From an uncultured Rhizobiaceae bacterium (lineage in GTDB: Bacteria; Pseudomonadota; Alphaproteobacteria; Rickettsiales; UBA1997): 64,000 bases of DNA. The stretch covers positions 9,099 through 73,098 of the forward strand of contig CAZBNS010000001.1 in NCBI GenBank assembly GCA_964493475.1, given 5' to 3'. Shown here in pieces: positions 1 through 32,452 of this stretch; the first letter of the stretch is position 1, and each line of letters begins with the position of its first letter. The position numbers and the translations under genes are program-made. The notes under the pieces were generated by a model. It saw only the letters and a list, made by a program, of their open reading frames with translations. It did no database searches and was not told where the DNA came from.

Positions 1-3000
1 AAAGTCAAAAGCATTCTAGTCCAAGCATTTTTATTTTGTTGCGCTGGCGATAACGAAGCATTTAAACCAGATTGCTGAGTTCTTAAAGTATTCTGTTTAA
101 ACTTCTCAATAGCCTGTTGCTCTGACATTCCAGCTTTAATATTAGCTTGTATATTTGCATAACCACCGAATATAACTGAACCAATATCGCCATACCTAAC
201 CATTGATGTAAAAATCTCTGTAAAGTTAATGTTGTCAATTCTTCTTCCCAATCCCCCCAAAGCCTTTTCTAATTTCACAAATTCAAAATCATTTGTCATT
301 GCTCTTTTTAACTCTTGATTATATCCACTATTTAATCTCTCATTGACAAAATCTATTTTTGTCATGTAGTTTATTGTATTTTTTGGATGTATTAATCCGT
401 CTTTAAAGCTACCTAACCAATCAGTAGTCTTAACATCTATTGAGTAATTGCTTATAGCTCCCATCTGTCTAAAAAACACAGGAAAACTAGCGCCTATTTT
501 AGCAACCGTCCAGTTAGATAATAACTTGTTGAATAATTTGTTTGTGGTCGTGTAATACTCTTTTCTACTACTCAACGATTGATTATTTAATTGCTCTCGC
601 ATACTCTTAATAACGCCATCACCAAACTTATTTTTTATAGCAAATTGGATATCTGGACTATAAAATATATCTGCTATCTGTTTATATTTTTCAGACATAT
701 TAATTAGGTATTCCGTCTGTTGAATATTACCTACCGCCTTATTGTAAGCATCACTGACTATAGGAATTACATTTTGCACTACCCTCTCTTTTGTAAATGA
801 TAGACTTTTATTTTTTCCATCAAGATCAAGTGAAGTTCCAAACACACTAAAATTATTTTCATGCTCTGATGTAGCTGGCCAGTAATTACTTTCTTTTTTT
901 AGGTCGGTATTGAACAATCTTATAAACACATCATTCACTTCATCGTAATTATCAACACTATTCATTAAGGAATCTGCAAAGGCTTTTTCATTTTGAGAAA
1001 GATTTGAGATTAAATCATTTATTTGTTGGTCGCCATAATGTTTATAAAAGTCAGCTTTCTTTTTATCATTCTTTATGGAGTTATAAATATCCATTATTTC
1101 CATTTTTGAAATCTTTTCTGGTGCTGCGCTCCTAGGGTCGTAAAGGTCATAATCCTTAACTCTCAAATCTCTATTGCTCGCCAGCAACTCCCAGTCATGC
1201 TTTACATTTAAGGTTTCTTTAAGTTCGGCATTCAATCGGTTTTCTTTGTTGAATACTATTTGATTAAGCCTATTCTCATCAAGCTCTAAATTATACTTTT
1301 CAGCAATATTTTTATTCGTTAGGTAATTCATTATGTCAAATTGATTGCCTACTTGATTTACATACAAGCTAGTTGTGAGTTTTGTTTTTAAAGTCTTCTT
1401 ATCTGCCTTGTTATTGTTGATAGCTTCAAGAACTTCATTTTTATTTACCACTTTTTTGTTTCTTTTCAATTCATCGTGCATTAACTTCTCGTCTGCCGAA
1501 TATTTTTTTATATTCAAGACATCATTATAAATACTCTCAATCAATCCTCTACTGCTATCTTTCAAACCCTGTGACTTATAATTCAAAAACTTTTCTTTTA
1601 ATGAATAGGCAAGCGTATCTTTTAGCTCCGCATATTCTAAGCCTCCTTTGAGATTAGCTAACTCATTTATTGCTTGCTCTTGCGAAATCTTGTTGTAGCT
1701 TCTCAAATCCTCAAAAAACTTGTTGACTTCATATAGGTATTTTCCGACCTTGCGGTTTCCTTGTTTTACATTGTTTGTATGAAATAGTTCTTTATCTATC
1801 TTATCTTTAAGGTGGTTCTTAATTTGCGAATCAATGAGGTTATCAATCTTTTCAATAATGTTCCTCTTGTTTGCTTCAAGTTGTTCTTGTGTTTGAATAT
1901 TCTTTATATCGGTTATGAATTTAGATTTATTCTCTGGTGATAAACTGCTTTTTTGGATAATGTCTGTTAGCTGTGATTGAACTTGCTTTATGTCCTGTTT
2001 TGTTCTAGCTTTCAAATATCTAACATCATCTTTTAGTTTGCTGGTTTCTTTTTTGATTGAATCAAAATCATTTTCTGTCATAACTTTTAGTTTGAAGTCT
2101 TTTGATTTTTCAATAATTTCAATAAACTCTTTGTAATTAAATGGAAGAGATGATAACATTTCTTCGGCTTGATTAGATTGATTTATACGGTTTTCGTAGT
2201 TTGCAACTCTGGAAGAATCAGAACTTTTATAAATGTAATTACCACCTCTGTCTTCTTCAATCGCATTGAATAAGTCGTTTATATCAAGGCTTCTATAATC
2301 TTTATTTCCAAAAAATCCGTCTTCAACTGCTTTTTTCAATATGTAATCTGCTGTGTTTTCAAATTTTGTTGCTCCTTTTTTCTCTGTAGATTGCCTTATT
2401 AAATCATTAAAACCCATTGATTTTAACTCGCCGCCACCATCATAAATTCCGCCCTGTTGTTTAATCCATTGGCTTAATGTGGCTGGTTGTCTAGGTAGTG
2501 GCTGATTAGCTACTTTTTCCATGAATTTGAGTTGTTTATAGGCTACTTCGTAGCCATCAAAATTAAAAGAAGCATTTTTATTTTTTAGCTGCTTTAGTGT
2601 TTGTTGGAGGTTGCCAACATTGTCTTTTATGCTCTCTCTTATTTTATCAAAATTATCTTGAGACACATCCTTGTTTAAACTAATGTTGTTTAGCTCGGTA
2701 TCAACAACTTTTCTCTCATTCTGTAAAATATTGTCAACGATATTTAAGATGTTTTCTTTGCTGTCTTGCTTGCTAATTATTTCCTTAATGTATTTAGCTC
2801 CTTCAACATAGTTATTGCCATTATAGGTTGTATTGTCATTTTCTCTCTTTATGAGATTAATGACTTCTTCCTGTAAGCCTGGGTTTCTCAAAGTGTCCGC
2901 TACCTTATTAATAGTATTATCAGCCTCAATTTCGGTAGCTCCATTATTGATTAACTCTTGTCTTCCGTTGTAAAATATGTGTCCTATTCCGGCACCACCA

Positions 3001-3929
3001 GCACCACCGATAGCTCCAAGTAATCCAGCATAAAGTGTATCTTGGGCTATCTCTTTTATATTTTTTTCTCTAACGCCAGTAAACACCATAGCGGTGTCTT
3101 CAATTATGTTCTGTAAACTTTCTTCAATACCCTCGCTTAATGCACCATAAAATATTGATGTTATTACATTATTGCCTTTTATAGCGCTTAATAGTTTTTC
3201 CGTTCCATAATATTCAACAAATGCGTTAGCTGATGCAACACCAATACTTAGAGTGTTAGCCCAACCTCTTGACATTCCACTCTCAATACTTTCTTCATAT
3301 AATTCTTGTTGTCCGCTTATTCCGTATAAAGCAGATATTAAAGCTGGGGATTTTAAGGCGATTGTTGCCATTATATTTGAAGTGACACCGCCTAAATCAT
3401 AGCTAACTCCGTCTTTTTCTACCTTTGATAATCCTAACTCATCTATAAACTTTTTTTGAGTGTCTCTCATTTCTAAAGCCGCTTCATCTAAATTAGCTAA
3501 AAACTCGTCCAAATCCTTTTCTGTATATTTTGATTTATCACTATAAACTAATCTTCCATATTGTGCTGCTACTTTGTGTCCTATACTTCTTTTCGCCGAT
3601 TGATACATATTAATAGGAAAAGCAGTAAACCCTCTTGAAAAATCCAAAGCTTTACTTACTAGAAAATTGTTTGCAAAATCATTTGAATATTTTTTATTGT
3701 CATCCTGTGATATATCAACCATTCCTACAAAATCTTCTCTTGATTTATTTTTAAACTGAACCAAGTCATTATAATTTATCTTTACTGGATCATTAAAAGT
3801 TGAATTAACAATGTTTTTAGTGTTGTCATTATAAAAGCTGATGTTGTCTTCCGCAACTTCAACCGCACTATTTATATCAAAACCACTATTTTTTACCTCA
3901 ACTGCGGATTCTATATCAAATTCTTCCAT
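1..3929 (-). CDS. Very large virion-associated protein (internal/ejection-protein position); C-terminus beyond window edge
   Basis: Open frame on the minus strand from ATG at 3929 to position 3 (1309 codons, no stop). It is missing from the ORF track only because it is open-ended. Gly-rich hydrophobic stretch LLGAIGGAGGAGIG is encoded around 2990-3040. It is the last and largest gene after tail-tube-sized and internal-protein-sized genes. Function is inferred from size and position only. Confidence 0.45.
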   Translation of the reverse strand, partial: MEEFDIESAVEVKNSGFDINSAVEVAEDNISFYNDNTKNIVNSTFNDPVKINYNDLVQFKNKSREDFVGMVDISQDDNKKYSNDFANNFLVSKALDFSRGFTAFPINMYQSAKRSIGHKVAAQYGRLVYSDKSKYTEKDLDEFLANLDEAALEMRDTQKKFIDELGLSKVEKDGVSYDLGGVTSNIMATIALKSPALISALYGISGQQELYEESIESGMSRGWANTLSIGVASANAFVEYYGTEKLLSAIKGNNVITSIFYGALSEGIEESLQNIIEDTAMVFTGVREKNIKEIAQDTLYAGLLGAIGGAGGAGIGHIFYNGRQELINNGATEIEADNTINKVADTLRNPGLQEEVINLIKRENDNTTYNGNNYVEGAKYIKEIISKQDSKENILNIVDNILQNERKVVDTELNNISLNKDVSQDNFDKIRESIKDNVGNLQQTLKQLKNKNASFNFDGYEVAYKQLKFMEKVANQPLPRQPATLSQWIKQQGGIYDGGGELKSMGFNDLIRQSTEKKGATKFENTADYILKKAVEDGFFGNKDYRSLDINDLFNAIEEDRGGNYIYKSSDSSRVANYENRINQSNQAEEMLSSLPFNYKEFIEIIEKSKDFKLKVMTENDFDSIKKETSKLKDDVRYLKARTKQDIKQVQSQLTDIIQKSSLSPENKSKFITDIKNIQTQEQLEANKRNIIEKIDNLIDSQIKNHLKDKIDKELFHTNNVKQGNRKVGKYLYEVNKFFEDLRSYNKISQEQAINELANLKGGLEYAELKDTLAYSLKEKFLNYKSQGLKDSSRGLIESIYNDVLNIKKYSADEKLMHDELKRNKKVVNKNEVLEAINNNKADKKTLKTKLTTSLYVNQVGNQFDIMNYLTNKNIAEKYNLELDENRLNQIVFNKENRLNAELKETLNVKHDWELLASNRDLRVKDYDLYDPRSAAPEKISKMEIMDIYNSIKNDKKKADFYKHYGDQQINDLISNLSQNEKAFADSLMNSVDNYDEVNDVFIRLFNTDLKKESNYWPATSEHENNFSVFGTSLDLDGKNKSLSFTKERVVQNVIPIVSDAYNKAVGNIQQTEYLINMSEKYKQIADIFYSPDIQFAIKNKFGDGVIKSMREQLNNQSLSSRKEYYTTTNKLFNKLLSNWTVAKIGASFPVFFRQMGAISNYSIDVKTTDWLGSFKDGLIHPKNTINYMTKIDFVNERLNSGYNQELKRAMTNDFEFVKLEKALGGLGRRIDNINFTEIFTSMVRYGDIGSVIFGGYANIQANIKAGMSEQQAIEKFKQNTLRTQQSGLNASLSPAQQNKNAWTRMLLT

Positions 3930-3941
3930 ATCACATACCTA

Positions 3942-5465
3942 CTATATTTTTTTAACATCAATAATCTTTCCTGTACTATCTTTTAAGACCATTGCTTCGT
4001 TGCCGTTTTTATCTTTCATTCTAACATAACCGCCATTGTTCAAATTTTTATTCCCAACTGCTCCGCTTTTTCTATCATAAGAAATTACATTATTACCAAA
4101 GACAACCGCATTTGTTTTTTCTTTTAGAGATACAAACCTGTCCTTCACATATTGTTCTTTTATTGCATCCATAATGTTGTTAACGCTATCTAGCGTCTTT
4201 TGATCGCTTGCATTTAAATTTATCTTGTTTTCTTTTGCGACATTAAAAGCATTTTCATAAAAAAACACTCTATCATCAATGTATGAATCAGAATCGTTTT
4301 TAAAGAAGTCATTTATTCTATTATTTATTTGTTCGCCAGCGGTAGTAATGAACCATCTATCACCATCTTTTAGTCTTTTGTTATTTCCCATAATTTGATT
4401 TAAAGCTAATGTAGTATTAGATAAAAAGTTTTTATATTGAGAGTTTGTAATATTGTTGTTTGCCCTAGCTTCTCTTACAGCGTTTCTAAAATCAATTACA
4501 CTTTCTACATTGTTAAGATCAGAGTTTCTTATTTTAAATTTTCCATCCTTATTTTTTATATTAAAAAATTTATATCTTGAATCTAGTTCTGTTAAAACTA
4601 CAGCATCCATTATTTTTTGTTGCGGTGTTTTTCTTAAGCTATACACACCATCTTTCTCTTCCTCATCAATAGATTTTTTTAGTTTTCCTATATAGGAAGT
4701 TATTTTATTATAATCTTCCTGTGATAAATCATATTGTTCTTGTATTGTTTGTGGTTGTTGTATCCATTTATCATAATTACTTACAAAGGTATCTGTATCA
4801 TTCTCAAACAAGCCATTAAAATGATTAAATGCACTACTTAGTTTTGTTTGATTGAAAGTCTTATTTATTTTTTCAACATCACTTGTTTTAATAAGATTTT
4901 GTCCCTTAGTTCCAGTTTGTAAAAGAGTTTTATCCATAACTTGTTTATTAATCTGATAATCGGCTGTAGTTTCCGGTGTTAATGTTCCATTAAACATATT
5001 ATCATAATAAACTTGAGCAGAACCAAGCTTGCTATCAATAAATGATAAAATTGAATCTCTATTTTGAGAATCCAATTTATTTTTATAATTCTCATTAGCT
5101 TTTATTAAATAAGTATTTTTCAAAGTTAAATATTGTTTTTCAATATCTAATTTCATTTCATCAGGTAAACCAGCAGACAATTTATTTTTAGTTTCCATAA
5201 AATCCTTTCCTAATTTTTCAGGATTAGCCGATAAATTACTATATGAATTATACATTGAATTAGATAAAGAACTTGTGGCATCTAGTAATAAGCTATTATA
5301 TTCTAATTGTGCTTGTTTAAGTCTTTGTTTTTTTATAATATTAGCTCTATCTTCAGCAAATTTTGAAACACCAACTACATTTTGTGAAACTGCTTGTATT
5401 ATTCCACTATTACTAACTGGATTTACAATCGCCGTTTTTATTTGCTTTTTATACATTGTTCCCAT
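3942..5465 (-). CDS. Phage structural protein, internal virion protein candidate
   Basis: 507-aa ORF, tightly packed (12-nt gap to the next gene), between a small internal-protein-sized gene and the giant gene. No recognisable motif. Confidence 0.3.
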   Translation of the reverse strand: MGTMYKKQIKTAIVNPVSNSGIIQAVSQNVVGVSKFAEDRANIIKKQRLKQAQLEYNSLLLDATSSLSNSMYNSYSNLSANPEKLGKDFMETKNKLSAGLPDEMKLDIEKQYLTLKNTYLIKANENYKNKLDSQNRDSILSFIDSKLGSAQVYYDNMFNGTLTPETTADYQINKQVMDKTLLQTGTKGQNLIKTSDVEKINKTFNQTKLSSAFNHFNGLFENDTDTFVSNYDKWIQQPQTIQEQYDLSQEDYNKITSYIGKLKKSIDEEEKDGVYSLRKTPQQKIMDAVVLTELDSRYKFFNIKNKDGKFKIRNSDLNNVESVIDFRNAVREARANNNITNSQYKNFLSNTTLALNQIMGNNKRLKDGDRWFITTAGEQINNRINDFFKNDSDSYIDDRVFFYENAFNVAKENKINLNASDQKTLDSVNNIMDAIKEQYVKDRFVSLKEKTNAVVFGNNVISYDRKSGAVGNKNLNNGGYVRMKDKNGNEAMVLKDSTGKIIDVKKI

Positions 5466-5480
5466 TATAACACCTTTTGA

Positions 5481-5960: not shown

Positions 5961-5962
5961 AT

Positions 5963-8521: not shown

Positions 8522-8523
8522 GG

Positions 8524-9130: not shown

Positions 9131-9763
9131 TTAGCTATTAGCTGCCGCTGTAAATTCAGCCTCTTTGCTTCCAGTAAGTGTTGAAGTTGTAGAGGTAAAT
9201 TTATAACTGGAACCTGTAGCTGTTGCTTGATATTTAGTGCAAGCAGAATCTTGATAGACTATTACTCCGCTAGAAACATAGTTAGTAGCTGTTCCAGTTG
9301 TTTTAACATAACCATCAATGCTTGTAGCATTAGTCATTGTTTCGGTATTCCCAGTATAAGTATATTCAGACCCGTCAGAATTTTCAATAAATGTTGATAA
9401 ATCTTTATCAGAATAAACACCAAGTCCAGCCTCAACAGTTGAGCCACTAGATCCAGGAGCAGTAACATAACCAACCGTTGGAGTTTCGCCGCCATTAGAT
9501 ACTTCATAAACAGTCTTATTATAAGAATAACTCACTTTAGTTACTGTTATTGATGTAGCATTTGTTACATTATACCAAGTATTGTTGCCATAATCAGCAT
9601 CAATAACCACTATTTGATCGCCAGTTTTTAATTTATCTGTAGCAAAATAGCCATTAGATGTTATTGTGTCTTCATCCTCATTATAATACTGCCAAATCAA
9701 AGGAGCTATACCCCTTTGAGTAGCATTAGATATTAACGATAAATTTTTTAATTTAAAACTCAT
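9131..9763 (-). CDS. Hypothetical phage structural protein (possible capsid decoration/minor capsid)
   Basis: 210-aa T/S/G-rich ORF immediately downstream of the major capsid gene. Confidence 0.3.
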   Translation of the reverse strand: MSFKLKNLSLISNATQRGIAPLIWQYYNEDEDTITSNGYFATDKLKTGDQIVVIDADYGNNTWYNVTNATSITVTKVSYSYNKTVYEVSNGGETPTVGYVTAPGSSGSTVEAGLGVYSDKDLSTFIENSDGSEYTYTGNTETMTNATSIDGYVKTTGTATNYVSSGVIVYQDSACTKYQATATGSSYKFTSTTSTLTGSKEAEFTAAANS

Positions 9764-9777
9764 TTTTTACCTCGTTA

Positions 9778-10790: not shown

Positions 10791-11171
10791 TTAAACTAAC
10801 TCAAAATGTGGCATATCGCAAATTGTAGTAAAATCTCCGCCCCATCTAATATTTATCTTTAATTCTTTTGCTTTTTGCTTAAATACATTAGCGACCGCAA
10901 TATAATATTTCTTTTCCCAAGTTCCCTTTCCATTTTCATCAAAACACATTATATCAATAGCTTTTCCACTTTGATGCTTTGATTTATTCTTTATTCCATC
11001 GCATTTACTTTTGCCTTCTTTAAAAGCTTTCTGCTGATCTTCTAAACCTCTTAATCCACAAGTAATACTAAAATCATAAGGACTAATCTTTATCACTTCA
11101 TGAGCTAGCCTACACAAATCTTTGTGAACTGTATTTAATAGTTGTTCACTTCTTTCACTAAATTTAAACAT
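10791..11171 (-). CDS. Endolysin, peptidase M15 (VanY / D-Ala-D-Ala carboxypeptidase-like) family
   Basis: 126 aa with HQSGKAIDI and C-terminal WGGDFTTICDMPHFE motifs, typical of zinc M15 phage peptidases. It lies adjacent to small membrane-protein genes. Confidence 0.8.
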   Translation of the reverse strand: MFKFSERSEQLLNTVHKDLCRLAHEVIKISPYDFSITCGLRGLEDQQKAFKEGKSKCDGIKNKSKHQSGKAIDIMCFDENGKGTWEKKYYIAVANVFKQKAKELKINIRWGGDFTTICDMPHFELV

Positions 11172-11178
11172 AAATCCT

Positions 11179-11409
11179 TTATTTATTACAAATTCTTAAA
11201 TTTTCCCTAAGGTTGCCATAATCAATAATAAATCTATTGATTATTGGCCTATTAACTTCTTTTAAAGTCTTTTCTAATTCTTGTTGCTCTGTTGCTGTAT
11301 AATTAACAATAGGTGGACAACTAGAAATCACTTTTTGACAATTTGTTATACAAATCATCATCAGAATTAATACTAGGTTTTTGATTATATTTCTTTTGTT
11401 TATCTGCAT
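11179..11409 (-). CDS. Outer-membrane spanin (Rz1-like lipoprotein) candidate
   Basis: 76 aa with an N-terminal signal-like segment LVLILMMICITNC followed by CPP. It overlaps the upstream 64-aa TM gene by 89 nt in another frame (overlapped Rz/Rz1-type architecture). The lipobox is non-canonical (N at -1). Confidence 0.4.
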   Translation of the reverse strand: MQINKRNIIKNLVLILMMICITNCQKVISSCPPIVNYTATEQQELEKTLKEVNRPIINRFIIDYGNLRENLRICNK

Positions 11410-18548: not shown

Positions 18549-18560
18549 TATAGCTCCTTT

Positions 18561-19208: not shown

Positions 19209-19226
19209 TTTTTTCGTCCCTTTTTA

Positions 19227-21631: not shown

Positions 21632-21647
21632 GATAACAAAGGAAAAC

Positions 21648-22664
21648 ATGGAAGAAAATAAAGGAAATATTATAATATACGAGCTAGAAGATGGAACTTC
21701 TAGAATTGATGTTAAAGTTGAAAATGAAACTGTATGGTTGACAAAAAATCAAATAACTCAACTATTTAGCACAAATAGACAAAATATAGAATATCATATT
21801 AAAAATATATATGAATCCAACGAATTGCAAGAAAGTTCAACTTGCAAAAAAATTTTGCAAGTTCAGAGAGAAGGAAGTAGAGATGTTAAAAGGGAAGTGG
21901 ATTTTTATAATCTTGATATGATTATATCTGTAGGTTATCGTGTTAACAATGTTGCAGGCGTTAGATTCAGACAGTGGGCGACAAAGCGTTTAGCTGAATA
22001 TATGGTTAAAGGCTTTACTTTGGATGATGAAAGACTAAAAGGAAAGGGCAACAAGTATCTTGATGAACTTGTTCAAAGAATAAAAGAAATTAGGGCAAGC
22101 GAGCTTAATTTTTACCAAAAAGTAAGAGATGCTTTTAGTTTGAGTAAAGACTATATGGAAAATAAAAAAGAAACAGGTTTATTTTTTGCAAACATACAAA
22201 ACAAATTATTTCATGCAATAGTAGGAAAAACTGCAGCTGAGTTAATTTGCGAAAGAGCAGATCACGAGTTAGCTAATATGGGATTGTCTTGTTTTAACGG
22301 CACAAGAGTTAGAAAAGCTGATGTTATAATAGCTAAAAATTATTTAAAAGAAAACGAATTGAAATCACTTGAAAAATTAGTTGTTATGTTTCTCGATTTT
22401 ATAGAAAATTATATAGAAAGAACCAAAGAACCTATATATACTAATGATTGGAAATATAGGGCTGACGAATTTTTAAATTTCTACAAATATAAATTGCTAG
22501 ATGGATATGGAACAAAAAGTAATAAGGAAGCTGAGGATTTTGCTGAAAGTGAATATACCTTATTTGACAAAGAACGAAAAAGACAAGAAAAAATAGAAGC
22601 TGATCAAAAAGATTTAAAAGAAATAGAAGAGCTAAAAAAAGAACTCAAGAAAATCAAGAAGTAA
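21648..22664 (+). CDS. RhuM-family protein
   Basis: Conserved blocks match RhuM-family proteins along the whole length: WLTKNQITQLFSTNRQNIEYHIKNIY, YNLDMIISVGYRVNNVAGVRFRQWATKRL, IRASELNFYQKVRDAF, AKNYLKENELKSLEKLV. Confidence 0.8.
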   Translation: MEENKGNIIIYELEDGTSRIDVKVENETVWLTKNQITQLFSTNRQNIEYHIKNIYESNELQESSTCKKILQVQREGSRDVKREVDFYNLDMIISVGYRVNNVAGVRFRQWATKRLAEYMVKGFTLDDERLKGKGNKYLDELVQRIKEIRASELNFYQKVRDAFSLSKDYMENKKETGLFFANIQNKLFHAIVGKTAAELICERADHELANMGLSCFNGTRVRKADVIIAKNYLKENELKSLEKLVVMFLDFIENYIERTKEPIYTNDWKYRADEFLNFYKYKLLDGYGTKSNKEAEDFAESEYTLFDKERKRQEKIEADQKDLKEIEELKKELKKIKK

Positions 22665-23075: not shown

Positions 23076-23128
23076 AATTACATTTTGTAATTAAATTACT
23101 TGACAATATAAAAACATATTGTTATTAT
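23076..23128 (+). promoter_or_regulatory. Early rightward promoter with palindromic operator
   Basis: The 17-bp palindrome AATTACATTTTGTAATT (23076-92) abuts TTGACA (23100-05), 17 nt, TATTAT (23123-28). Additional TAATTACA/TGTAAT copies lie near 23030 and 23190. The core is the same as in the cI/cro region. Confidence 0.55.
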
Positions 23129-23578: not shown

Positions 23579-23728
23579 ATGTTAAGAATAGTATTATATG
23601 TATTAGCGAAATTTCATTTTATAACTGGTGCAAAATTTAGGTCAATATTAGCTGAAAGATATTTAGTTTTTGAAAATCTTGATTTTGATAATCCTACAAA
23701 TTTTGTAATAAATGATGAGGAGATGTAA
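23579..23728 (+). CDS. Small ORF (49 aa) coupled to the RecT-like gene
   Basis: ATG at 23579. Its stop TAA ends 1 nt before the ATG at 23730. It is below the ORF-track size cut-off, and coding status is uncertain. Confidence 0.3.
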   Translation: MLRIVLYVLAKFHFITGAKFRSILAERYLVFENLDFDNPTNFVINDEEM

Positions 23729-23729
23729 A

Positions 23730-24953
23730 ATGGATTTAAAAACAATAACTAAAGATACTGATACTTTAATCAGTGCTTTAAAACAACATAACATAAAAGA
23801 TTGTCAAAAACCTTTTGCAATCAAGCTTATTAGTGCTCTTGAAGATTTAATGAATAATACAACAGTATATGATTGGAAAACTAATTCAAATACTCCTGTT
23901 AAATTAAGTCAAGAAGAAGAACGACAAGCTTTTTTAACACTTGTTGATGGACTTTCTAGGGTTAACAACAGCGGTTTAAGTGTTAATGATCACGAGCTAA
24001 TTTATTTTATAAAAAGAGGAAAACTATTAACTGTTTCTACTCACTATTCAGCACCTTTCAGAGTTGCTAAAGATATGGGGTATATGATAGTTCCAACATT
24101 CTATGAAATTTATAGTAATGAAGATTTTGAAGTTAGTGAAAGAAGAAATAATGAGGACAAAGTTTTATACGATGTAAAACACAAGCAATTAGAATTTGAT
24201 AGAAGTATTACGGCAGAAAAGCTAACTAATAAAACTTTTAAAGGTTTTGCATTAAGACTTTCTGTTTCAACTATTCAAGTAGATGGAAAAATTAACTTTC
24301 TATTTGAAGCTTTTACAAGTATGACACCTCAGCAAGTTATTGATAGAAGCATGAGGGGTGATAATGGAATCTTTAAATCATTTTGGCAAAAAGCAACTTA
24401 TGATCCTAAAACAAAGAAAAAATTAACAGATAGCAAAAAAGTTATTCTTAATGAATTAAATGAAAAATCAATTTGGCTTTCTGATACTAAAGCTATGGTA
24501 TATAAAACTCTTATTAGAGAAATCACTAGACCGTTGAGAGAAGCTTTGCCTCAGCTTGAAAAGATGTATCAATTTATGGATTACGAAGAACAAGAAGAAT
24601 TGAAATCACACGAGGACAATCCATTAAACAAAACCAGTAAAACAGTTGATACAACTTTTATGGAAATAAAAGATGTAGATCTTAAAAATCCAGATGAAAA
24701 TTTAAAGAAAGATGTTGCTGAATTGCTGCAGATGTATGATGTCAATCCTACATTGGCGGAACAACATTTAAAAGAACTTACTGATTTATTGAATAAAGCT
24801 AATGAAATTATAAATAATCAAGAAAGACAAAATGAAAAACAAAAAATAATAAATCAAAAAGCAAAATACATTCTAGCTGTAAATAGCAAAAATGAAAAAT
24901 ATAAAGAAACACTTGGAAAGCTGTTTAAAAAAAATAATAACACAAAGGTTTAA
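23730..24953 (+). CDS. RecT-like single-strand annealing protein
   Basis: The start was moved from 23712 to ATG 23730 (GAGGAG 7 nt upstream). Central blocks (ELIYFIKRGK...VAKDMGY, FKGFALRL, MTPQQVIDRS, KAMVYKTLIREITRPL) fit the RecT family. It is followed by a YqaJ-type exonuclease. Confidence 0.55.
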   Translation: MDLKTITKDTDTLISALKQHNIKDCQKPFAIKLISALEDLMNNTTVYDWKTNSNTPVKLSQEEERQAFLTLVDGLSRVNNSGLSVNDHELIYFIKRGKLLTVSTHYSAPFRVAKDMGYMIVPTFYEIYSNEDFEVSERRNNEDKVLYDVKHKQLEFDRSITAEKLTNKTFKGFALRLSVSTIQVDGKINFLFEAFTSMTPQQVIDRSMRGDNGIFKSFWQKATYDPKTKKKLTDSKKVILNELNEKSIWLSDTKAMVYKTLIREITRPLREALPQLEKMYQFMDYEEQEELKSHEDNPLNKTSKTVDTTFMEIKDVDLKNPDENLKKDVAELLQMYDVNPTLAEQHLKELTDLLNKANEIINNQERQNEKQKIINQKAKYILAVNSKNEKYKETLGKLFKKNNNTKV

Positions 24954-24957
24954 TTAA

Positions 24958-26106
24958 ATGATAGAAATCAAATTTAAAGAAACTACGGCGATGAAAAGTA
25001 TTAAAAATTCATTGCCACCTTTTGTAAAAGAAAAAATAATCGATGTAAAACAGAAAACTGATAAATGGTATAATTTAAAATCAAATAAAATTGGTTCAAG
25101 CGAAATATTTGCATTGATTCAGTACTATGCAAAAGATAATGAATTATTATCTTGTGGAATACAGCCAGCAGATATAAGAGAAGAAAGCAGTTTTAATACG
25201 GCTTTTGGCCTATATCATAAAATCAAGAAGACTAAAGAATATTTCACAAAACCATTAGGTAGGGTTTATGCAGACTACGGCACAGCAATGGAAACTTATG
25301 CTAAATATTGGCTAAAAAACCAATACAAAGCGAGTATAGAACAAGGTTTAGTATTTATAGATAATGATTGTATAGTCTCAACTGATATAATTGGATCATG
25401 GAAAGACACACCGATTCAAGATATTAATTCAGTATATATTGATATTATAAACAATCCTTGTTTTATAGTTGAAATTAAGACAATTAACAGTTGGAAATAC
25501 CAAGCTAAAACACTAATAACAGGTATTGATTGGAAAACAATTTTGCAACATCAATATCAGTTATTTATAAGTGGTATAGAATGGGGTGGTATTCTACCAA
25601 TTGTCTTAGAAAATGACACAGCTGAAGAAAGATGTTTTATTGCAGGTATGGCTCAAGGAAATAAATCTAAATTTATAAAATATCTTGAGCCAAGATGTAA
25701 AACACAGATTTATTTTATTCAAAAAATACCAGCATTAAGAGGTTTATTTACAGCAGTTTTAGAGAGGTTTTTTGATGATGTAAAAAACAATAATGAGCCT
25801 ACAATGTATCCCGATAAGGAAGAGCCTAAAGCTATTTTCAATATGGTTAGAAATTATCAAGATACATTTAGAATTAATGTTTCTGTTGATGGGAAAATAG
25901 ATAATTTTATTAAATCAAAAGAAAACTTTGAAATGGCAAAGAAAGAATTTGAGAAACAGAAAGATCTGATAATCAATACTCTTTATATGTCTAAGGCATT
26001 AAGAATAACTGATAAAGATAATTCGAAAAGAATTGAAATAGACGGAAGAAATGCGGTAATAATCAAAGATATTAAGGAAAAAGAACAATGCAAGGAATTA
26101 GCTTAA
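24958..26106 (+). CDS. YqaJ-like recombination exonuclease
   Basis: Contains KWYNLKSNKIGSSEIFAL (YqaJ N-terminal motif) and the EIKT catalytic-type motif. It is paired with the RecT-like gene. Confidence 0.6.
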   Translation: MIEIKFKETTAMKSIKNSLPPFVKEKIIDVKQKTDKWYNLKSNKIGSSEIFALIQYYAKDNELLSCGIQPADIREESSFNTAFGLYHKIKKTKEYFTKPLGRVYADYGTAMETYAKYWLKNQYKASIEQGLVFIDNDCIVSTDIIGSWKDTPIQDINSVYIDIINNPCFIVEIKTINSWKYQAKTLITGIDWKTILQHQYQLFISGIEWGGILPIVLENDTAEERCFIAGMAQGNKSKFIKYLEPRCKTQIYFIQKIPALRGLFTAVLERFFDDVKNNNEPTMYPDKEEPKAIFNMVRNYQDTFRINVSVDGKIDNFIKSKENFEMAKKEFEKQKDLIINTLYMSKALRITDKDNSKRIEIDGRNAVIIKDIKEKEQCKELA

Positions 26107-27713
26107 GGCCTTATCAGCGAGAAAAGGTTAATTACTCGATTGATAAAATAAAAGAAAGGGGCAACTCGCTATTGATTGCTCCCACTGGCGCGGGTAAGAC
26201 AATTATGTTGTCGGCAGTATGTGATGAGTGCATAAGATATATAAAGCCTAAAATGCACACGCTAGTTTTAGTTCATAGAAATACAATCAACAATCAAAAT
26301 ATAGATAAGTTCCAAAAAGTCGCAAATAGGCAGGTTAGTTTATTCACTGCCGAATGCAAAGACTTCTCGGGGCAGATTATTTTTGCTATGGTGCAAACGG
26401 CTAAGAATGAATATAAGAAGTTTCCAGCTTTTGACATGATTGTTATTGATGAATGCCATCACGCCATCGCAGACAGCTATATGAAAATCATACTTGATCA
26501 GAAAGCTAAAAATCCAAACCTTTTATTGTTTGGAGTTACAGCAACGCCTAACAGAGGAGATGGCGAAAGTCTCATTTCACTATTTGATAACTACTCACAA
26601 ATAAGTATAAAACAGCTTATAGAGATGGGTTATTTAGTGAGACCAACAATGATTGATTGCAGTCCAATAGTTCAAGCGACAAAAAAAGATAAAACAGGAA
26701 AAAGCGAAATAGTTGAAGAAAGCGGCTTAATATCAAGATTAGATTTTGAAAAACTGTCTGATAAGATATTTAATGATTGGAACAATCTAAGGACAAAGCT
26801 TAATCTCAAAAAAACTGTTATATTTTGTAGTAGCCATGAGGATATAGATACTCTTGCGAAACATTTTAATCTTAATGGGGTAAAAACAGCCGTCATAAAA
26901 GATTTTTCAAGTAGTATAGATAGAGAAAGAGAACTTGGAAGATTTGAAAAAGGCAACTGCGATGTAATCATAAATGTTGATATACTTACTGAGGGTTACG
27001 ATTATCCGCCTATTGATTGCGTTGTATTGGCAAGGAGCATGGGAGTTAAAAGTCTATATATTCAAATGATAGGAAGAGGACTGAGACCGTTGGACAATAC
27101 CAAAACGAAAAATATAAAAAAAGAATGTGTTGTTATTGATTTTGGCGGAAACATAAAAAAACATGGAACTCTTGATGAGGAAGTAAATATGTGCGAATCA
27201 TATCAATGTGAAGATGGAAAACATTTAACCAATGCGGACATATTTAAAGGCAATTTATCTATATTTGGCAATGACGCAAAAGTGGAAAAGCCAAGAGATG
27301 GAGTGATAGTTGGGGAGATCCAACAAATACATGAGTTTTATAAAAATTCATTTGCCGATTGGGAGAGTTTTGAAGATCCGGAACATGGATTGATTTATTG
27401 CACCTGTGGAAAAAAAGCCAATGTGATTATCATAAAAAATAAATCATTCGCTACCACAAATAAAGTAAATTGGGAAAATATAGGTATCGCCCCCGATGGC
27501 AGTGCAAACAACATAAACTTCCTACTGGAAACAGGGGATGAATTTATGAAAGAAAATGATCCTGAGTATCAAAAAGCTAGCAGAGACAAGCCAATTCTTG
27601 ATATGCAAATAGAAATATTAAGAGCTAGATATTCATTGCAGAACTGCAATTTTTACCGAGCTAACACAATGATTTGCTGGGATTTGTTCAGGAAAAATTT
27701 CCTGAACAAATAA
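26088..27713 (+). CDS. SF2 DEAD/DEAH-box helicase
   Basis: Contains LRPYQ, Walker A APTGAGKT, Walker B VIDECHH, TATP and QMIGRGLR motifs. Confidence 0.85.
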   Translation: MQGISLRPYQREKVNYSIDKIKERGNSLLIAPTGAGKTIMLSAVCDECIRYIKPKMHTLVLVHRNTINNQNIDKFQKVANRQVSLFTAECKDFSGQIIFAMVQTAKNEYKKFPAFDMIVIDECHHAIADSYMKIILDQKAKNPNLLLFGVTATPNRGDGESLISLFDNYSQISIKQLIEMGYLVRPTMIDCSPIVQATKKDKTGKSEIVEESGLISRLDFEKLSDKIFNDWNNLRTKLNLKKTVIFCSSHEDIDTLAKHFNLNGVKTAVIKDFSSSIDRERELGRFEKGNCDVIINVDILTEGYDYPPIDCVVLARSMGVKSLYIQMIGRGLRPLDNTKTKNIKKECVVIDFGGNIKKHGTLDEEVNMCESYQCEDGKHLTNADIFKGNLSIFGNDAKVEKPRDGVIVGEIQQIHEFYKNSFADWESFEDPEHGLIYCTCGKKANVIIIKNKSFATTNKVNWENIGIAPDGSANNINFLLETGDEFMKENDPEYQKASRDKPILDMQIEILRARYSLQNCNFYRANTMICWDLFRKNFLNK

Positions 27714-27722
27714 CTCAAAACC

Positions 27723-27744
27723 AAGCCGAGAAATCGGCTTTTTT
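27723..27744 (+). terminator. Rho-independent terminator after the helicase
   Basis: AAGCCGA-GAAA-TCGGCTT is followed by TTTT. Confidence 0.5.
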
Positions 27745-27763
27745 AATAATTAATAAAGAAAAA

Positions 27764-28081
27764 ATGACTGAAAATAAAATAGTTAATGAGTTAGCAGAAA
27801 AAATAGATATCGATAATCCTTTAGGAAAAGAAATTAAAAGATGTGATTCACAAGTTGATTTAAAACTCAAAAGAATAGTTGAAAATATTGAGAAATTAGA
27901 GGAAGAAAAGAAGGAAGTTTCAAGGCAGATTTCTTATATTTATAAAGAAGCAAAAGGTTTTGGCTTTGATACAAAAGCTATAAGAAAAGTTATATCATTA
28001 AGAAAGATGGATAGTGATAAGAGAATTGAATTAGAAGAATTAACCCAGACTTACAAAGAAGCTTTGGGAATGTTGGGTTAA
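27764..28081 (+). CDS. GapR/DUF2312-family DNA-binding protein
   Basis: The start was moved to ATG 27764, downstream of the terminator. LKRIVENIEKLEEEKKEVSRQISYIYKEAKGFGFDTKAIRKVISLRKMD...YKEALGML is the canonical DUF2312 sequence pattern of alphaproteobacteria and their phages. Confidence 0.85.
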   Translation: MTENKIVNELAEKIDIDNPLGKEIKRCDSQVDLKLKRIVENIEKLEEEKKEVSRQISYIYKEAKGFGFDTKAIRKVISLRKMDSDKRIELEELTQTYKEALGMLG

Positions 28082-28134
28082 ATATAAAACAACACCACAT
28101 TCTTCGAACTGACAAGGATAAGCAAGATTTTTGT

Positions 28135-28515
28135 TTGTCCTTTTCCAATTTCAAGCTAAAAGCACCGATTGTTGTCAATATAGATTTATTCTACAAAAAG
28201 AACTCTAGCCAACAACTTCGTGCATATTGGCGATTAATCAAGATTTGTAAAACTTTTATGAATAATCAGGGAAATAATTTTGATGATGAAACCGTTAGTG
28301 ATTACTTTAAACTAAAATCAGGACATTATGCTGAAATTGATGGAATAAAATTACCTAGAAGTATAGCTCTTGATAGTGGAACAACCACACAAGAAATGAG
28401 AACTCTTATTGATATAATACTTGAATTCGGTTTAGACAATGAAATTGAGGATTGTTATATTGAAAATCAAGAGCTAGACGAACTTCTGAAATATTATGAA
28501 AATCAAAAAAGATAA
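28135..28515 (+). CDS. NinB/Orf-like recombination protein candidate
   Basis: TTG start. PIVVNI...SSQQLRAYWRLI and the C-terminal TTQEMRTLIDIILEFG are arranged as in lambda NinB (PIVVTI...QNRKLWA...EFAELLELIQAFG). Confidence 0.35.
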   Translation: MSFSNFKLKAPIVVNIDLFYKKNSSQQLRAYWRLIKICKTFMNNQGNNFDDETVSDYFKLKSGHYAEIDGIKLPRSIALDSGTTTQEMRTLIDIILEFGLDNEIEDCYIENQELDELLKYYENQKR

Positions 28516-29323
28516 AATTATGGAACACTTAATAAATAAAATTCATTTAGGCGACTGTTTGGAGTTTATGAGACAGATTCCAGACAGATCAATTGATTTA
28601 ATTCTTACATCCCCACCTTATGACAATTTAAGGAATTACAAAGGATATACATTTGACTTTGAAAACACTGCAAAAGAGCTATACAGAATCTTAAAAGATG
28701 GCGGTGTTATGGTTTGGGTTGTTGGCGATGCGGTTATAGATAAAAGCGAGACAGGAACATCATTTAAACAGGCATTATATTTTAAGGACCTTGGCCTAAG
28801 ATTACACGACACCATGATATACAAAAAGAATGGATCGCCATTTCCAGAAAAAACAAGATATTCCCAAGTGTTTGAATATATGTTTGTGTTTTGCAAAGGA
28901 AATTTAAAAACATTTAATCCATTAAGAGATAGAAAAAATAGATGGACCGGAACATGGGGAGTAAAACATTATAGGAACAAAGAAGGCAATCTTATAAAGG
29001 GAGAGAAATATGAATGTGCGGAATATAGTTGCAGATTTAATGTTTGGAAATATAATACCGGTGCTGGATTTAGCACAAAGGATGATATAGCTTACAAACA
29101 TCCCGCAATATTTCCAGAGGCACTAGCAGAAGACCATATATTAAGTTGGAGTAATGAAAATGATATAGTTCTGGATCCGTTTATGGGAAGCGGAACAACT
29201 GCAAAAATGGCAGTGAAGCACTATAGAAAATTTATAGGTTGCGATATATCAGCTGAATATGTGGACATAGCAAATAAGAGACTTGATATCTTTACAAGAC
29301 AGATGTGTTTTAAGTTTAACTAA
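28496..29323 (+). CDS. DNA methyltransferase (N6-adenine/N4-cytosine, beta class)
   Basis: Motif IV TSPPY precedes motif I DPFMGSGTT, so this is an orphan phage MTase. The alternative start ATG 28520 would remove the overlap with the previous gene. Confidence 0.85.
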   Translation: MKIKKDKIMEHLINKIHLGDCLEFMRQIPDRSIDLILTSPPYDNLRNYKGYTFDFENTAKELYRILKDGGVMVWVVGDAVIDKSETGTSFKQALYFKDLGLRLHDTMIYKKNGSPFPEKTRYSQVFEYMFVFCKGNLKTFNPLRDRKNRWTGTWGVKHYRNKEGNLIKGEKYECAEYSCRFNVWKYNTGAGFSTKDDIAYKHPAIFPEALAEDHILSWSNENDIVLDPFMGSGTTAKMAVKHYRKFIGCDISAEYVDIANKRLDIFTRQMCFKFN

Positions 29324-29334
29324 AATAAAGCGAT

Positions 29335-29793
29335 ATGAAAACAAAAAGATTTAAACTTGATAAAAATCAATCTAAAGACCTTGAAAAGATATTTTTACAG
29401 GTGGATGAAAAATGCAGATTGTCATATGTTTATGCTTCCTGTATAATTCAAACAATAGGCTACAACTTCTACAATAAAAAGATAATCCCTATTGAGAAAA
29501 TACATAAATGGTTCTTAACTGATTATTTTATCAATCAATATATCAACAATAATCAAGTTGACTTCTTTTATCTCTCTATTGCGAGTGAATTTTTAAAACA
29601 GAAACTCAACTTTGATTTACTAGAAAGGCAAGATGAAGTATTGAGTAAAATAAACCTAAGAGAGATAAGAGTAGACAATAAAGAAGCGCCATTTACTGAT
29701 TTAGAAAAATATTGTGAATATGTTGCTAATAGAGGCATGAAACACGAAAGCGAACAGAATCAGATTTATAATTTTGTAGTTAAAAAGGAGTAA
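29335..29793 (+). CDS. Hypothetical phage protein
   Basis: 152-aa ORF with no motif. Confidence 0.3.
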   Translation: MKTKRFKLDKNQSKDLEKIFLQVDEKCRLSYVYASCIIQTIGYNFYNKKIIPIEKIHKWFLTDYFINQYINNNQVDFFYLSIASEFLKQKLNFDLLERQDEVLSKINLREIRVDNKEAPFTDLEKYCEYVANRGMKHESEQNQIYNFVVKKE

Positions 29794-29796
29794 AAT

Positions 29797-29976
29797 ATGG
29801 AATATAAAATAATAGAATTAATAATAGAAATTACAATCGCAATAATAGTTATGTTATTATTATTCAATTCAAAAAATAATTTATTATATGTTATAATAAT
29901 TCAATTATTTGCATTATTGATAGGTTTTAAGTATTACAAAGTTCATAAATATAAAGAATTTGATAGAATAATATAA
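29797..29976 (+). CDS. Small two-helix membrane protein (59 aa)
   Basis: ATG at 29797 with GGAG 6 nt upstream. The product has two hydrophobic helices. It is below the ORF-track cut-off. Confidence 0.35.
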   Translation: MEYKIIELIIEITIAIIVMLLLFNSKNNLLYVIIIQLFALLIGFKYYKVHKYKEFDRII

Positions 29977-30005
29977 TTTTATTAATAATAAAAAGGTAAA
30001 AGAAA

Positions 30006-30452
30006 ATGATAAATAATGATAGATTTAAGTTTAGATTTTGGGATATAGAAAACAAAAAGTTTTACACACCAAAATCACAAGATGAGTGGATAGGTGTTGA
30101 TGATACCGGGATATATTTATATGAACGAGATTATTCAAATATTAAGGAACAGGTTGAAGTTACCGATGTAACGAAATATTACGAAATTAACCAATCCACT
30201 GGCTTAAAAGACAAAAATGGAAATCTGATTTATGAGGGAGATATAATTAAGATTGATGGATTTAATATTGGCGCGGTTGTCTTTTGGAGGAATCAATTTT
30301 GCTTTGAGAGCGTTAATCCAAATATTACACAAAATGAAAGGGGACACTTCAATTGGGAAGCATTTTGTAAAACAGATCATTCAAATTATATACCTGAAAT
30401 AATAGGCAACATTTACGGAAGCCCTGAATTGCTGGAGGTGGAAAATGACTAA
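30006..30452 (+). CDS. YopX-family phage protein
   Basis: FKFRFWD...QSTGLKDKNGNLIYEGDII...IIGNIYGSPELL is the typical YopX pattern. Confidence 0.7.
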   Translation: MINNDRFKFRFWDIENKKFYTPKSQDEWIGVDDTGIYLYERDYSNIKEQVEVTDVTKYYEINQSTGLKDKNGNLIYEGDIIKIDGFNIGAVVFWRNQFCFESVNPNITQNERGHFNWEAFCKTDHSNYIPEIIGNIYGSPELLEVEND

Positions 30453-30587
30453 TATTATTGATCTAAGAGGTCTTTTTATTAAGCCTATTGAGGATTGTTC
30501 TTGTTCCTTAAGGAAATATGTAAAAACCATGATGAATTTTGTCAAATGGCTTGTTATGGCTATTTTTTTGAATTAAAGGAGTAAATC

Positions 30588-30956
30588 ATGGAACAACTAG
30601 AAAAAGAAATCATAAACTGGCACAAAGCCACTTTTTTAAATGCTACTCTTGAAACTCAAATAATGAAATTCAAAGAGGAATACGAGGAAATGGAACAAGC
30701 TGACAACTATAGAAACTATGTAAATGAGTTATGTGATTGCATCATAGTTGCAACAGCTTTTAAACGATTTGGTGAAGCTGGAAATGTGCTTTATAATATC
30801 TTTAATCAATTTATCAAAATAACATTAGATAATAAAAAAGAAAACTGGGACTTTGATAGTGAGATTATAGAAAGGTTTGTTGAGGCTAAATTGAAGATTA
30901 ATAAACAAAGAAAATGGGAATTTATTAATGGGACTTATAAACATAAAGAGGAGTAG
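30588..30956 (+). CDS. MazG-like nucleotide pyrophosphohydrolase candidate
   Basis: The W..ATF....Q..KF.EEYEE...ELCDCIIV pattern resembles the helical EEXXE/D motifs of small phage MazG-like proteins. Confidence 0.4.
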   Translation: MEQLEKEIINWHKATFLNATLETQIMKFKEEYEEMEQADNYRNYVNELCDCIIVATAFKRFGEAGNVLYNIFNQFIKITLDNKKENWDFDSEIIERFVEAKLKINKQRKWEFINGTYKHKEE

Positions 30957-30959
30957 ATT

Positions 30960-31310
30960 ATGCAAATAGAAAAACCAATACGAATGAAAGAAATGTATGT
31001 GATGCTAAATATTAGTGAAAATACATTCAAGTATACAATGCTAAATCCGTTATTAAAACTACAACAAATAACCGATATAGATATTGGAGTAATTCCAAGA
31101 AAAACGAAAACAAGAATTCAATATATGTTTCAATATCAAAAGTTCGTTGAAGCGTTAAAATTGTTAAACAAACAAGATATAGGAGGTAATAAACAATGTC
31201 AGCCAAGAAAGAATATCCTAGACTTAAAGAAAGAAAAGGCATCTTTTACATCTACGACTATATTGAAGGGGAATTGCGCCGTCAGTCAACTGGAGCAAAT
31301 TCTGAGTTAG
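30960..31310 (+). CDS. Excisionase/HTH-like protein candidate
   Basis: Small ORF immediately upstream of, and overlapping, the integrase gene (IRMKEMYVMLNISENTF resembles an MerR/Xis-type HTH). Call is by position. Confidence 0.3.
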   Translation: MQIEKPIRMKEMYVMLNISENTFKYTMLNPLLKLQQITDIDIGVIPRKTKTRIQYMFQYQKFVEALKLLNKQDIGGNKQCQPRKNILDLKKEKASFTSTTILKGNCAVSQLEQILS

Positions 31311-32293: not shown

Positions 32294-32361
32294 AAAGCAT
32301 ATAACTTCTTATACTAAAAAAACTAAAAAATATTTTTGATGTAATTATAGTAATCTGAACG

Positions 32362-32406
32362 CACTCGCACAAACACTCGCACAGTGCGATTGATTTTACT
32401 CGCACA
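32362..32406 (+). promoter_or_regulatory. Three direct repeats (C/T)ACTCGCACA, candidate integrase arm-type sites
   Basis: Copies at 32362-71, 32374-83 and 32397-406 sit between int and the tRNA. They are locally GC-rich in an AT-rich spacer. Confidence 0.35.
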
Positions 32407-32452
32407 CTTGATTTTTAAAATTTTTGATAGCTTGATTTTATTGATTTGATAG

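Follow-up and report, generated by a model that had tools for sequence, protein, structure and literature searches.

Phage WO of Wolbachia combines a lambda-like head module with modules for a P2-like tail and baseplate; it also encodes a large serine recombinase and carries a eukaryotic association module. To our knowledge, phages of the Rickettsiales other than WO have barely been described, and genetic tools for this order are scarce. The element described here was found in a 64,000-nucleotide stretch of DNA (the "window"), which corresponds to positions 9099-73098 of contig C1 in a 1.69-Mb, 159-contig metagenome-assembled genome (MAG). Among 50,697 deposited phage genomes, its best matches are the Methylophilales phage MEP301 (34.8 kb, the nearest isolate) and the HTVC010P-type pelagiphages, which are marine podoviruses of ∼34-36 kb and thus of the same genome size. 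The element is very probably the integrated 33,155-bp genome of a temperate short-tailed phage with double-stranded DNA, residing in the chromosome of an uncultured bacterium that GTDB places in the order Rickettsiales. Its structural module is of the T7 type and its lysogeny module is lambda-like; the element is new in sequence and host but ordinary in kind.

The ends of the prophage were located by a word search of the whole contig, which returned an exact 46-bp direct repeat, TGGTGCCGAGAATGTGATTTGAACACACGACCTACTGATTACGAAT, whose two copies are spaced 33,155 bp apart. One copy is the 3′ end of a tRNA-Thr(CGT) gene that is intact and encodes its CCA (attR), and the other lies to the left of the window (attL; Table 1). 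The left end of the prophage is 702 bases outside the window and the right end is at window position 32498; the prophage is therefore 33.2 kb rather than 32.4 kb long. The original prediction had put forward a second att site, duplicated from the 3′ segment of the tRNA-Thr gene, as its own test of completeness; the exact 46-bp copy provides that site, and the element passes. Host genes flank the prophage on both sides within one 74-kb contig. To the left of attL is a gene for a CDF transporter with a 78% identical orthologue in a sister species, and to the right, past the tRNA gene, are those for LptA, LpxB, RlmN, GlyQ, GlyS, a carboxyltransferase, a P-type ATPase and DnaE. The G+C content of the prophage (29.5%) matches that of the rest of the contig (29.6%). 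An Rfam search across the prophage found nothing besides tRNA-Thr.

The gene for a tyrosine integrase adjoins attR, and the motifs TGLRVGEL, HTLRHT and LGH...Y in its product, assigned by eye, resemble the active-site boxes of tyrosine recombinases. The 9-mer ACTCGCACA occurs five times in the entire 1.69-Mb assembly, always within the two att arms and always in one orientation: three copies are in the right arm, between the integrase gene and attR, and two are in the left arm at window -538 and -527, just inside attL. In a sister species (genome G002), a prophage on contig C180 has a conserved arm adjoining the same core, with two copies of ACTCTTACA at the matching place. Since the arm repeats covary with an integrase that is 68% identical, they fit arm-type binding sites, and we infer that the ACTCGCACA copies serve as such sites for the integrase. 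Integration would have taken place by site-specific recombination between attP and the tRNA gene. Upstream of the integrase gene is an open reading frame (ORF) of 116 amino acids (aa) with an HTH-like (helix-turn-helix) N-terminus, as judged by eye, which is a candidate for the excisionase.

Two operons diverge from the immunity switch at ∼20.3 kb and converge on the att site. The leftward operon encodes, in order, Cro, four proteins without assigned role, a candidate small terminase, the large terminase, two small proteins, the portal, the scaffold, a 187-aa protein and a 100-aa membrane protein beside it, followed by the lysis cassette, the major capsid protein, a 210-aa protein, tail tubular proteins A and B, and three proteins in the positions of T7 gp14, gp15 and gp16. 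Families were assigned by scanning 40 ORFs with PHROGs and 38 with Pfam. No tape-measure or sheath family was found among the 40 ORFs scanned with PHROGs, and no RNA or DNA polymerase family was matched by any ORF scanned with either library; because none is encoded, the phage would use host polymerases. The last gene of this operon, which crosses the left edge of the window, is complete in the contig (1481 aa) and ends 140 bp from attL.

All 42 of the listed ORFs are free of internal stops, and their summed length is ∼95% of the element. A search of 5.8 billion proteins with the portal returned 41 relatives. The closest of these (83% identity) is encoded by a 16.3-kb NCBI contig (L084, from GCA_043955735.1) that has the same gene order. 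Between the prophage and this contig, the lengths of 14 late genes are equal or within a few codons, and the ratios of nonsynonymous to synonymous substitution (dN/dS) range from 0.04 to 0.35 (pooled dN 0.084, pooled dS 0.646, pooled dN/dS 0.13), which shows that purifying selection has been at work during most of the period since these two phages split. Individual values include those for the major capsid protein (96.7% identical, dN/dS 0.041), tail tubular protein A (0.064), the large terminase (87% identical, 0.072) and tail tubular protein B (88% identical, equal in length, 0.095). More distant relatives (Logan, ENA gut-metagenome and 43 IMG/VR contigs), with portals of 34-58% identity, keep the same structural order, and many are on contigs of 33.7-38 kb, a size class that matches the prophage. 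Note that the IMG/VR portal scan found nothing with a single-protein query and worked with an alignment-based query.

Within 10 kb on each side, the early and lysogeny genes are not shared by relatives other than L084. They recur in the prophage of the sister species, where the integrase (68%), the 413-aa protein (69%), the exonuclease (72%), the helicase (73%) and CI (36%) have identifiable counterparts, and where the 126-aa early protein likewise belongs to the set with 67-73% identity. Because these early genes are combined there with a different late module and are absent from the late-module relatives, the phage is a typical mosaic. Readings of the element as a gene transfer agent, a satellite or a tailocin were rejected, as it has its own integrase, immunity switch, recombination and helicase genes, terminase and full capsid set. 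The original prediction of an apparently intact, podovirus-like temperate prophage next to tRNA-Thr, with no frameshifted or truncated phage gene, was thus borne out: the element is structurally complete and has both att sites. Its list of modules stood for immunity, recombination, packaging, capsid, lysis, integration and GapR, but no confident tail fiber or excisionase could be added, and both are represented by candidates only.

The immunity switch is formed by divergent genes for a Cro-like protein and a CI-like repressor, and the repressor carries the catalytic serine motif of the S24 peptidases (DDSM). The 147-bp gap between cI and cro holds three ATGTAATTA half-sites. This motif has 9 matches in the window, compared to 2.7 expected, and four of the nine are in two control regions. 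The second region is within an ORF-poor stretch of 1 kb between the RhuM-family gene and the 413-aa gene, where a candidate operator with the palindrome TAATTACATTTTGTAATTA abuts the region's best promoter-like site (TTGACA-17-TATTAT, with an extended -10 TG). The leader behind this candidate early promoter (23141-23280) is DNA that is 74% conserved in the sister-species prophage, while its flanks are not, which may point to a small gene or to a non-coding element with a function. In a lysogen, the CI-like repressor would bind the predicted ATGTAATTA operators in the cI-cro gap and at the promoter 2.7 kb away. Two operons would thereby be shut off: the leftward one, which starts with cro and goes on to the packaging, virion and lysis genes, and the rightward early one, with the genes for recombination, the helicase, GapR, the methylase, excision and integration. 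The two genes behind the repressor gene encode a 174-aa membrane protein and a RhuM-family protein; they are probably co-expressed with it, and are probably accessory or exclusion genes of the lysogen. Loss of the repressor would turn on both operons and lead to excision, packaging and lysis.

Several observations weigh against a functional temperate phage. The 116-aa excisionase candidate has no family match in PHROGs or Pfam, and the only candidate for a tail fiber is the 187-aa protein, which has no match in PHROGs, Pfam or the PDB and whose AlphaFold2 model, made from a four-sequence alignment, has a predicted local distance difference test score (pLDDT) of 35. The CI repressor lacks a canonical Ala-Gly cleavage site, and in this AT-rich DNA promoter-like sites are no commoner than in shuffled sequence. 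The exact att core is absent from the viral and metagenome contig collections that were searched. Finally, there is no empty-site comparator because synteny left of the tRNA gene is not conserved in the genus. LpxB and LptA are conserved across the eight other genomes compared in the genus, but the left-flank genes are located elsewhere or absent there; only one of these genomes has a tRNA gene at that place, and it is tRNA-Thr(TGT).

In all, 401 genomes of the GTDB order were searched for T7-type portals (PF12236), which were found in 23 genomes and in 13 of 189 genera (∼6% of species representatives); the prophage's own portal has no relative in 40 close genomes. Four of these loci were inspected (in genomes G214, G184, G058 and G013), and all have long open frames in T7 order with terminase, portal, capsid, tail tubular and ejection-sized genes, forming late modules that look intact. 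One is in a Rickettsiaceae-like complete genome that has five ATP/ADP translocase genes and three portal copies (G214), two are in other families of the order (G184 and G058), and one is in the window's own family (G013). No description of podovirus-type prophages in Rickettsia was found in the searchable papers; prophage regions in complete Rickettsia genomes have been listed by PHASTEST surveys (PMC13375240).

The same MAG also carries a second, unrelated siphovirus-like prophage on contig C9 (L135 1-20000 and L136 1-8609), with an HK97 capsid-protease fusion, a tape measure, tail proteins (one of them, of 1260 aa, matches phrog_4271), a 674-aa large serine recombinase, a ParB-methylase and two more methylases. 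At C9 16983-17916 are homologues of the 100-aa protein and of the 64-aa and 76-aa lysis-cassette proteins of the main prophage. A 38-codon fragment at window 44434-44547 matches the C-terminus of the prophage endolysin with 87% identity and is 88 bp from the 3′ end of a tRNA-Arg(TCG) gene (44635-44710), where a related prophage was probably once integrated and left this remnant. In two other species of the genus, a P4-type integrase adjoins a 3′ fragment of tRNA-Thr. The 46-bp fragment is followed by GAGTAAGT in both (G003:C142 1807-3252, L117; G005:C113 1784-1831, L119), and in G003 the tyrosine integrase beside it has 418 aa. In this genus, the tRNA-Thr(CGT) core has thus attracted integrating elements of at least two kinds and is a hot spot for them. 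That functional-looking prophages are rare in this group is therefore a weak premise for the lineage, given the order-wide portals, the second prophage in the MAG, the remnants, the sister-species elements at the same tRNA gene and the PHASTEST surveys.

Separately, 27 contigs of the MAG (C8, C30, C54, C74 and 23 others; 127 kb) have more than 40% G+C in a bin of 30% G+C and are probably contaminants. A second PF12236 portal, on C30, was not accepted as belonging to this organism because that contig has 52.7% G+C.

The prophage may be a still-inducible temperate phage of a little-studied Rickettsiales family, although we put this forward tentatively. It could instead be cryptic, that is, structurally whole but unable to excise or to make infectious particles, having lost its receptor-binding fiber or excisionase or suffered regulatory decay, with the host perhaps retaining it for accessory genes such as those for RhuM, the membrane protein, GapR and the methylase. 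The uncertain fiber and excisionase are what such an element would show; in addition, the fiber genes of MEP301 follow the ejection proteins, where the prophage has its att site, and the endolysin fragment beside tRNA-Arg indicates that related elements do decay in this genome. However, no gene of the prophage is interrupted, the 14 late genes have kept their lengths under low dN/dS at a dS of 0.65, and the two att cores are still identical over 46 bp. The 187-aa fiber candidate is full length in four variants, and relatives place large fiber-like genes in its slot and not at the genome end. We consider a cryptic prophage rather unlikely. Far less probable still is an artefact of assembly or binning, in which a free phage contig was misjoined to the host or the contig belongs to another organism. 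The MAG is fragmented into 159 contigs with an estimated contamination of 5%, and the high-G+C contigs include one with an unrelated T7-type portal. Against this, the prophage has host genes on both sides in one contig, junctions that are an exact tRNA-derived duplication and a G+C content equal to that of its flanks; its GapR is 83% identical to a host protein encoded on another low-GC contig, and a sister species has the related integrase beside the same core. Moreover, Logan contigs of run SRR8925805 (2.6-9 kb), which represent an independent assembly and end before the junctions, contain segments identical to the prophage. A chimeric join is very unlikely.

A further question is what the host is, since temperate phages would be routine and carry no special meaning if it were a fast-evolving alphaproteobacterium living freely or extracellularly in gut or soil habitats. 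The assignment of the host to a Rickettsiales-like lineage was upheld. The nearest DnaE relatives (76-92% identity) are from MAGs titled "Rickettsiales bacterium", the DnaE tree places the clade beside Wolbachia with a Shimodaira-Hasegawa-like approximate likelihood ratio test (SH-aLRT) value of 100, and Wolbachia dnaE DNA has 77-85% identical matches among genomes of the same order (family f33, genus g113), so that the window's GTDB order holds Wolbachia. Because many rows of the DnaE alignment deviate in composition, attraction driven by AT content is possible in this tree. The host family (f1) is distinct from f33 and from the Rickettsiaceae-like f20, and is represented mostly by multi-contig assemblies. 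The claim that the host is a reduced intracellular bacterium fared less well. The ATP/ADP translocase (PF03219) had no match in the host genome or in six genomes of its family, while the same search returned five copies each in G214 and G202, which are complete genomes of f20; intracellular life is thus unproven for this host. The host has genes for lipopolysaccharide and peptidoglycan, the MAGs with the nearest DnaE relatives are, judging by their titles, from soil, stool-like and colon samples, and extracellular and gut-associated Rickettsiales families have been described in a preprint (10.1101/2023.01.31.526412). The second prophage, the remnants and the repeated use of the tRNA-Thr site in the genus point the same way. 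Several housekeeping proteins fall below their curated cut-offs, which fits a fast-evolving lineage; the GlyQ homologue (window 37930-38904) scores 158 bits against a cut-off of 369, and RlmN, LpxB and DnaE pass theirs. On the other side are the inclusion of Wolbachia in the order and its grouping with the clade in the DnaE tree, and the finding that a Wolbachia-like genome of the Anaplasmataceae (G262) also lacks the translocase, so that its absence does not exclude intracellular life. On balance, an extracellular or free-living host has nearly an even chance of being correct.

Table 1. Positions of the prophage's features and of the portal loci inspected in other genomes. Coordinates are those of the window unless a contig is named; negative numbers lie to its left.
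Feature	Position	Strand	Evidence and remarks
attL core	-702..-657 (C1 8396-8441), outside window		exact 46-bp repeat
Large internal (ejection) virion protein, 1481 aa	-516..3929 (C1 8582-13027)	-	T7 gp16 position
507-aa protein	3942..5465	-	internal virion protein B position (gp15-like); synteny only
Internal virion protein A (gp14-like), 159 aa	5481..5960	-	phrog_418, E = 2.9e-4
Tail tubular protein B, 852 aa	5963..8521	-	phrog_376, E = 3.6e-81
Tail tubular protein A, 194 aa	8524..9108	-	phrog_394, E = 1.5e-25
210-aa protein	9131..9763	-	no family match; Ser/Thr/Gly-rich C-terminal extension
Major capsid protein, 299 aa	9778..10677	-	PF19821, E = 1.1e-44; phrog_3437, E = 8.7e-45
Lysis cassette, four genes	10791..11727	-	70-aa, 64-aa and 76-aa proteins and M15 endolysin
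M15 endolysin, 126 aa	10791-11171	-	phrog_465, E = 5e-44; PF13539
Candidate tail fiber or receptor-binding protein, 187 aa	12125..12688	-	N-terminus common to fiber-like proteins of a relative
Scaffold (capsid assembly) protein, 290 aa	12698..13570	-	between portal and capsid; dN/dS 0.148
Portal protein, T7 type, 541 aa	13930..15555	-	phrog_332, E = 6e-68; PF12236 in homologues and genome search
Large terminase, 445 aa	16178-17515	-	phrog_2, E = 1.8e-28; phrog_2472
Candidate small terminase, 127-aa basic protein	17512-17895	-	role inferred from position
Four early/middle genes	17874..20062	-	no role assigned; 224 aa, DUF6291 (215 aa), 143 aa (phrog_503), 135 aa
Immunity switch	20068..21084	divergent	Cro-like HTH protein and CI-like repressor
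Cro-like HTH protein	20068-20262	-	PF01381
CI-like repressor	20410-21084	+	PF01381 (HTH), PF00717 (Peptidase_S24); phrog_4, E = 2.5e-35
Two genes co-oriented with cI	21107..22664	+	174-aa protein with three transmembrane (TM) helices and a coiled coil; RhuM-family protein, 338 aa (21648-22664; PF13310, E = 2e-94)
Candidate second operator	23076..23128 (palindrome 23076-23094)	+	palindrome TAATTACATTTTGTAATTA; contains one ATGTAATTA
Early operon	23712..31310	+	413-aa gene through 116-aa excisionase candidate
413-aa protein	23712..	+	first gene of early operon; no useful PDB match
RecE-like exonuclease	24958-26106	+	family search
SF2 helicase	26088-27713	+	family search
GapR-domain protein	27674-28081	+	PF10073, E = 5e-25
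126-aa protein	between GapR and methyltransferase genes	+	early operon
N6/N4 DNA methyltransferase	28496-29323	+	family search
152-aa and 59-aa proteins	between methyltransferase and YopX genes	+	early operon
YopX	30006-30452	+	family search
MazG-like protein	30588-30956	+	family search
Excisionase candidate, 116 aa	30960-31310	+	upstream of integrase gene
Tyrosine integrase, 365 aa	31196..32293	+	PF00589, E = 5.7e-18; SAM-like N-terminal domains; phrog_1, E = 3.6e-50
Three predicted arm-type direct repeats, ACTCGCACA	32363..32406	+	right arm, between integrase gene and attR
tRNA-Thr(CGT)	32453-32528	-	ARAGORN and Rfam; 3′ 46 nt (32453-32498) are the attR core
Inspected portal loci of other genomes	G214:C1 895000-934999; G184:C2 30000-69999; G058:C8; G013:C11		L125, L126; L127, L128; L129, L130; L131

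The genes whose roles were assigned with less certainty can be judged further from their relatives. The 1481-aa protein had no match in Pfam, PHROGs or the PDB; it follows the gp14-like and gp15-like genes and has 24-28% similarity to the terminal proteins of related phages, which have 1411-1833 aa. The 507-aa gp15-like candidate has weak matches in five IMG/VR relatives and no family match. For the gp14-like protein, PF24072 (T7_gp14) was matched at E = 0.008, which is below the cut-off, and homologues are present in 18 IMG/VR loci, compared to 38 for the scaffold protein. The N-terminal ∼70 aa of the 210-aa protein, matched in 31 IMG/VR loci, are common to proteins of ∼80 aa that are encoded between the capsid and tail genes of relatives. 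The first 48 aa of the 187-aa fiber candidate are 36-46% identical to the N-termini of a 765-aa and an 883-aa protein encoded in the same slot of L087, both of which weakly match phrog_910 ("tail collar fiber"); the candidate has four homologues of 186-188 aa, and its dN/dS against L084 is 0.15. In sequence searches of the PDB, nothing useful was matched by the 413-aa, 187-aa or 1481-aa protein. In the lysis cassette, the 70-aa protein has one TM helix and is holin-like. An overlapping pair, of which the 64-aa protein has an N-terminal TM helix and the 76-aa protein has a signal and a Cys-containing lipobox-like sequence, is spanin-like. The small proteins of this cassette may accordingly serve as holin and spanins.

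The RhuM-family gene has four paralogues in the MAG (on C146, C95, C112 and C13; 39-43% identity), two of them full length. The host has a GapR gene of its own, encoding 82 aa, at ∼4500-4745 of the low-GC contig C68. In its C-terminal domain, the phage GapR has 83% identity to the host protein; this domain is preceded by an extra N-terminal stretch of ∼30-55 aa, the start codon being uncertain (TTG at 27674 or a later ATG). This similarity points to exchange of the gene between phage and host lineage, and would make the pair a clean example of the recent exchange of a nucleoid-protein gene between a phage and its alphaproteobacterial host.

A prophage is not in itself surprising in a host whose family lacks the energy-parasite marker and which carries several mobile elements. 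The exact ends, the tyrosine integrase, the 46-bp tRNA-Thr core and the predicted arm sites nevertheless make up a concrete and testable integration system. If the prophage is inducible, it would be a fully delimited phage of this order other than WO, with a defined integrase, core and arm sites, and the integrase and att pair could possibly serve as a tool for site-specific integration at tRNA-Thr sites of related bacteria. Together with the T7-type late modules of Rickettsiaceae-like genomes, it would also point to an unrecognized group of podoviruses that infect Rickettsiales. The order-wide survey outweighs the single element in this respect, owing to the intact-looking modules found in multiple copies in Rickettsiaceae-like complete genomes.

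Compared to known phages, the prophage is like WO (Symbioviridae) in being a temperate phage of a Rickettsiales member. WO-type families were not seen in the ORF scans of the prophage, whose portal and tail are instead of the T7 type and whose integrase is a tyrosine recombinase. Single proteins of the prophage resemble those of the marine podoviruses at very low identity: its portal is 30% identical to that of MEP301 and 23-26% identical to those of HTVC010P-type phages, and its tail tubular protein B is 25-31% identical to theirs. The hosts of these phages are free-living marine bacteria. MEP301 and the prophage share the order of small and large terminase, portal, scaffold, capsid, small protein, tail tubular proteins A and B and internal proteins. 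Both have an endolysin of the M15 peptidase type, and neither encodes its own RNA or DNA polymerase. In contrast, MEP301 has its tail fiber genes after the internal proteins and has YqaJ and ERF recombination genes, and the tyrosine integrase, CI/Cro switch and GapR of the prophage have no counterpart among the annotations of its record. Closer likeness is found in uncultured podovirus contigs from gut and environmental samples (L084; L083 and L085-L089 from ENA and Logan; 43 from IMG/VR), whose structural modules have the same order and whose portals are 83% (L084), 58%, 47% and 34-43% identical. The G+C content of these contigs is 34-41%, compared to 29.5% in the prophage.

The likeness to T7 and the Autographiviridae consists of the PF12236 portal, tail tubular proteins A and B, the gp14-like protein, the large terminal ejection proteins and the T7 order of these genes. 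The markers of that family, a single-subunit RNA polymerase and a family A DNA polymerase, were not found in the scanned ORFs, and unlike T7 the prophage is temperate, has divergent operons that meet at attP and keeps its lysis genes inside the block of head genes. With lambda it shares divergent cI and cro genes, repeated candidate operators, a second promoter predicted to be under operator control, and a repressor with HTH and S24 domains. Unlike in lambda, the packaging and virion genes come after cro and share its strand, and the repressor is without the canonical Ala-Gly cleavage site. The sister-species prophage on G002:C180, a mosaic relative, has the same tRNA-Thr-derived core, a conserved arm and two arm-type repeats, but its late module is without a T7-type portal and its integrase gene is on the other side of the core. 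As in other systems with tyrosine integrases that target tRNA genes, the integrase gene of the prophage adjoins its att site, both arms carry repeats and the 3′ end of the tRNA gene is restored by integration.

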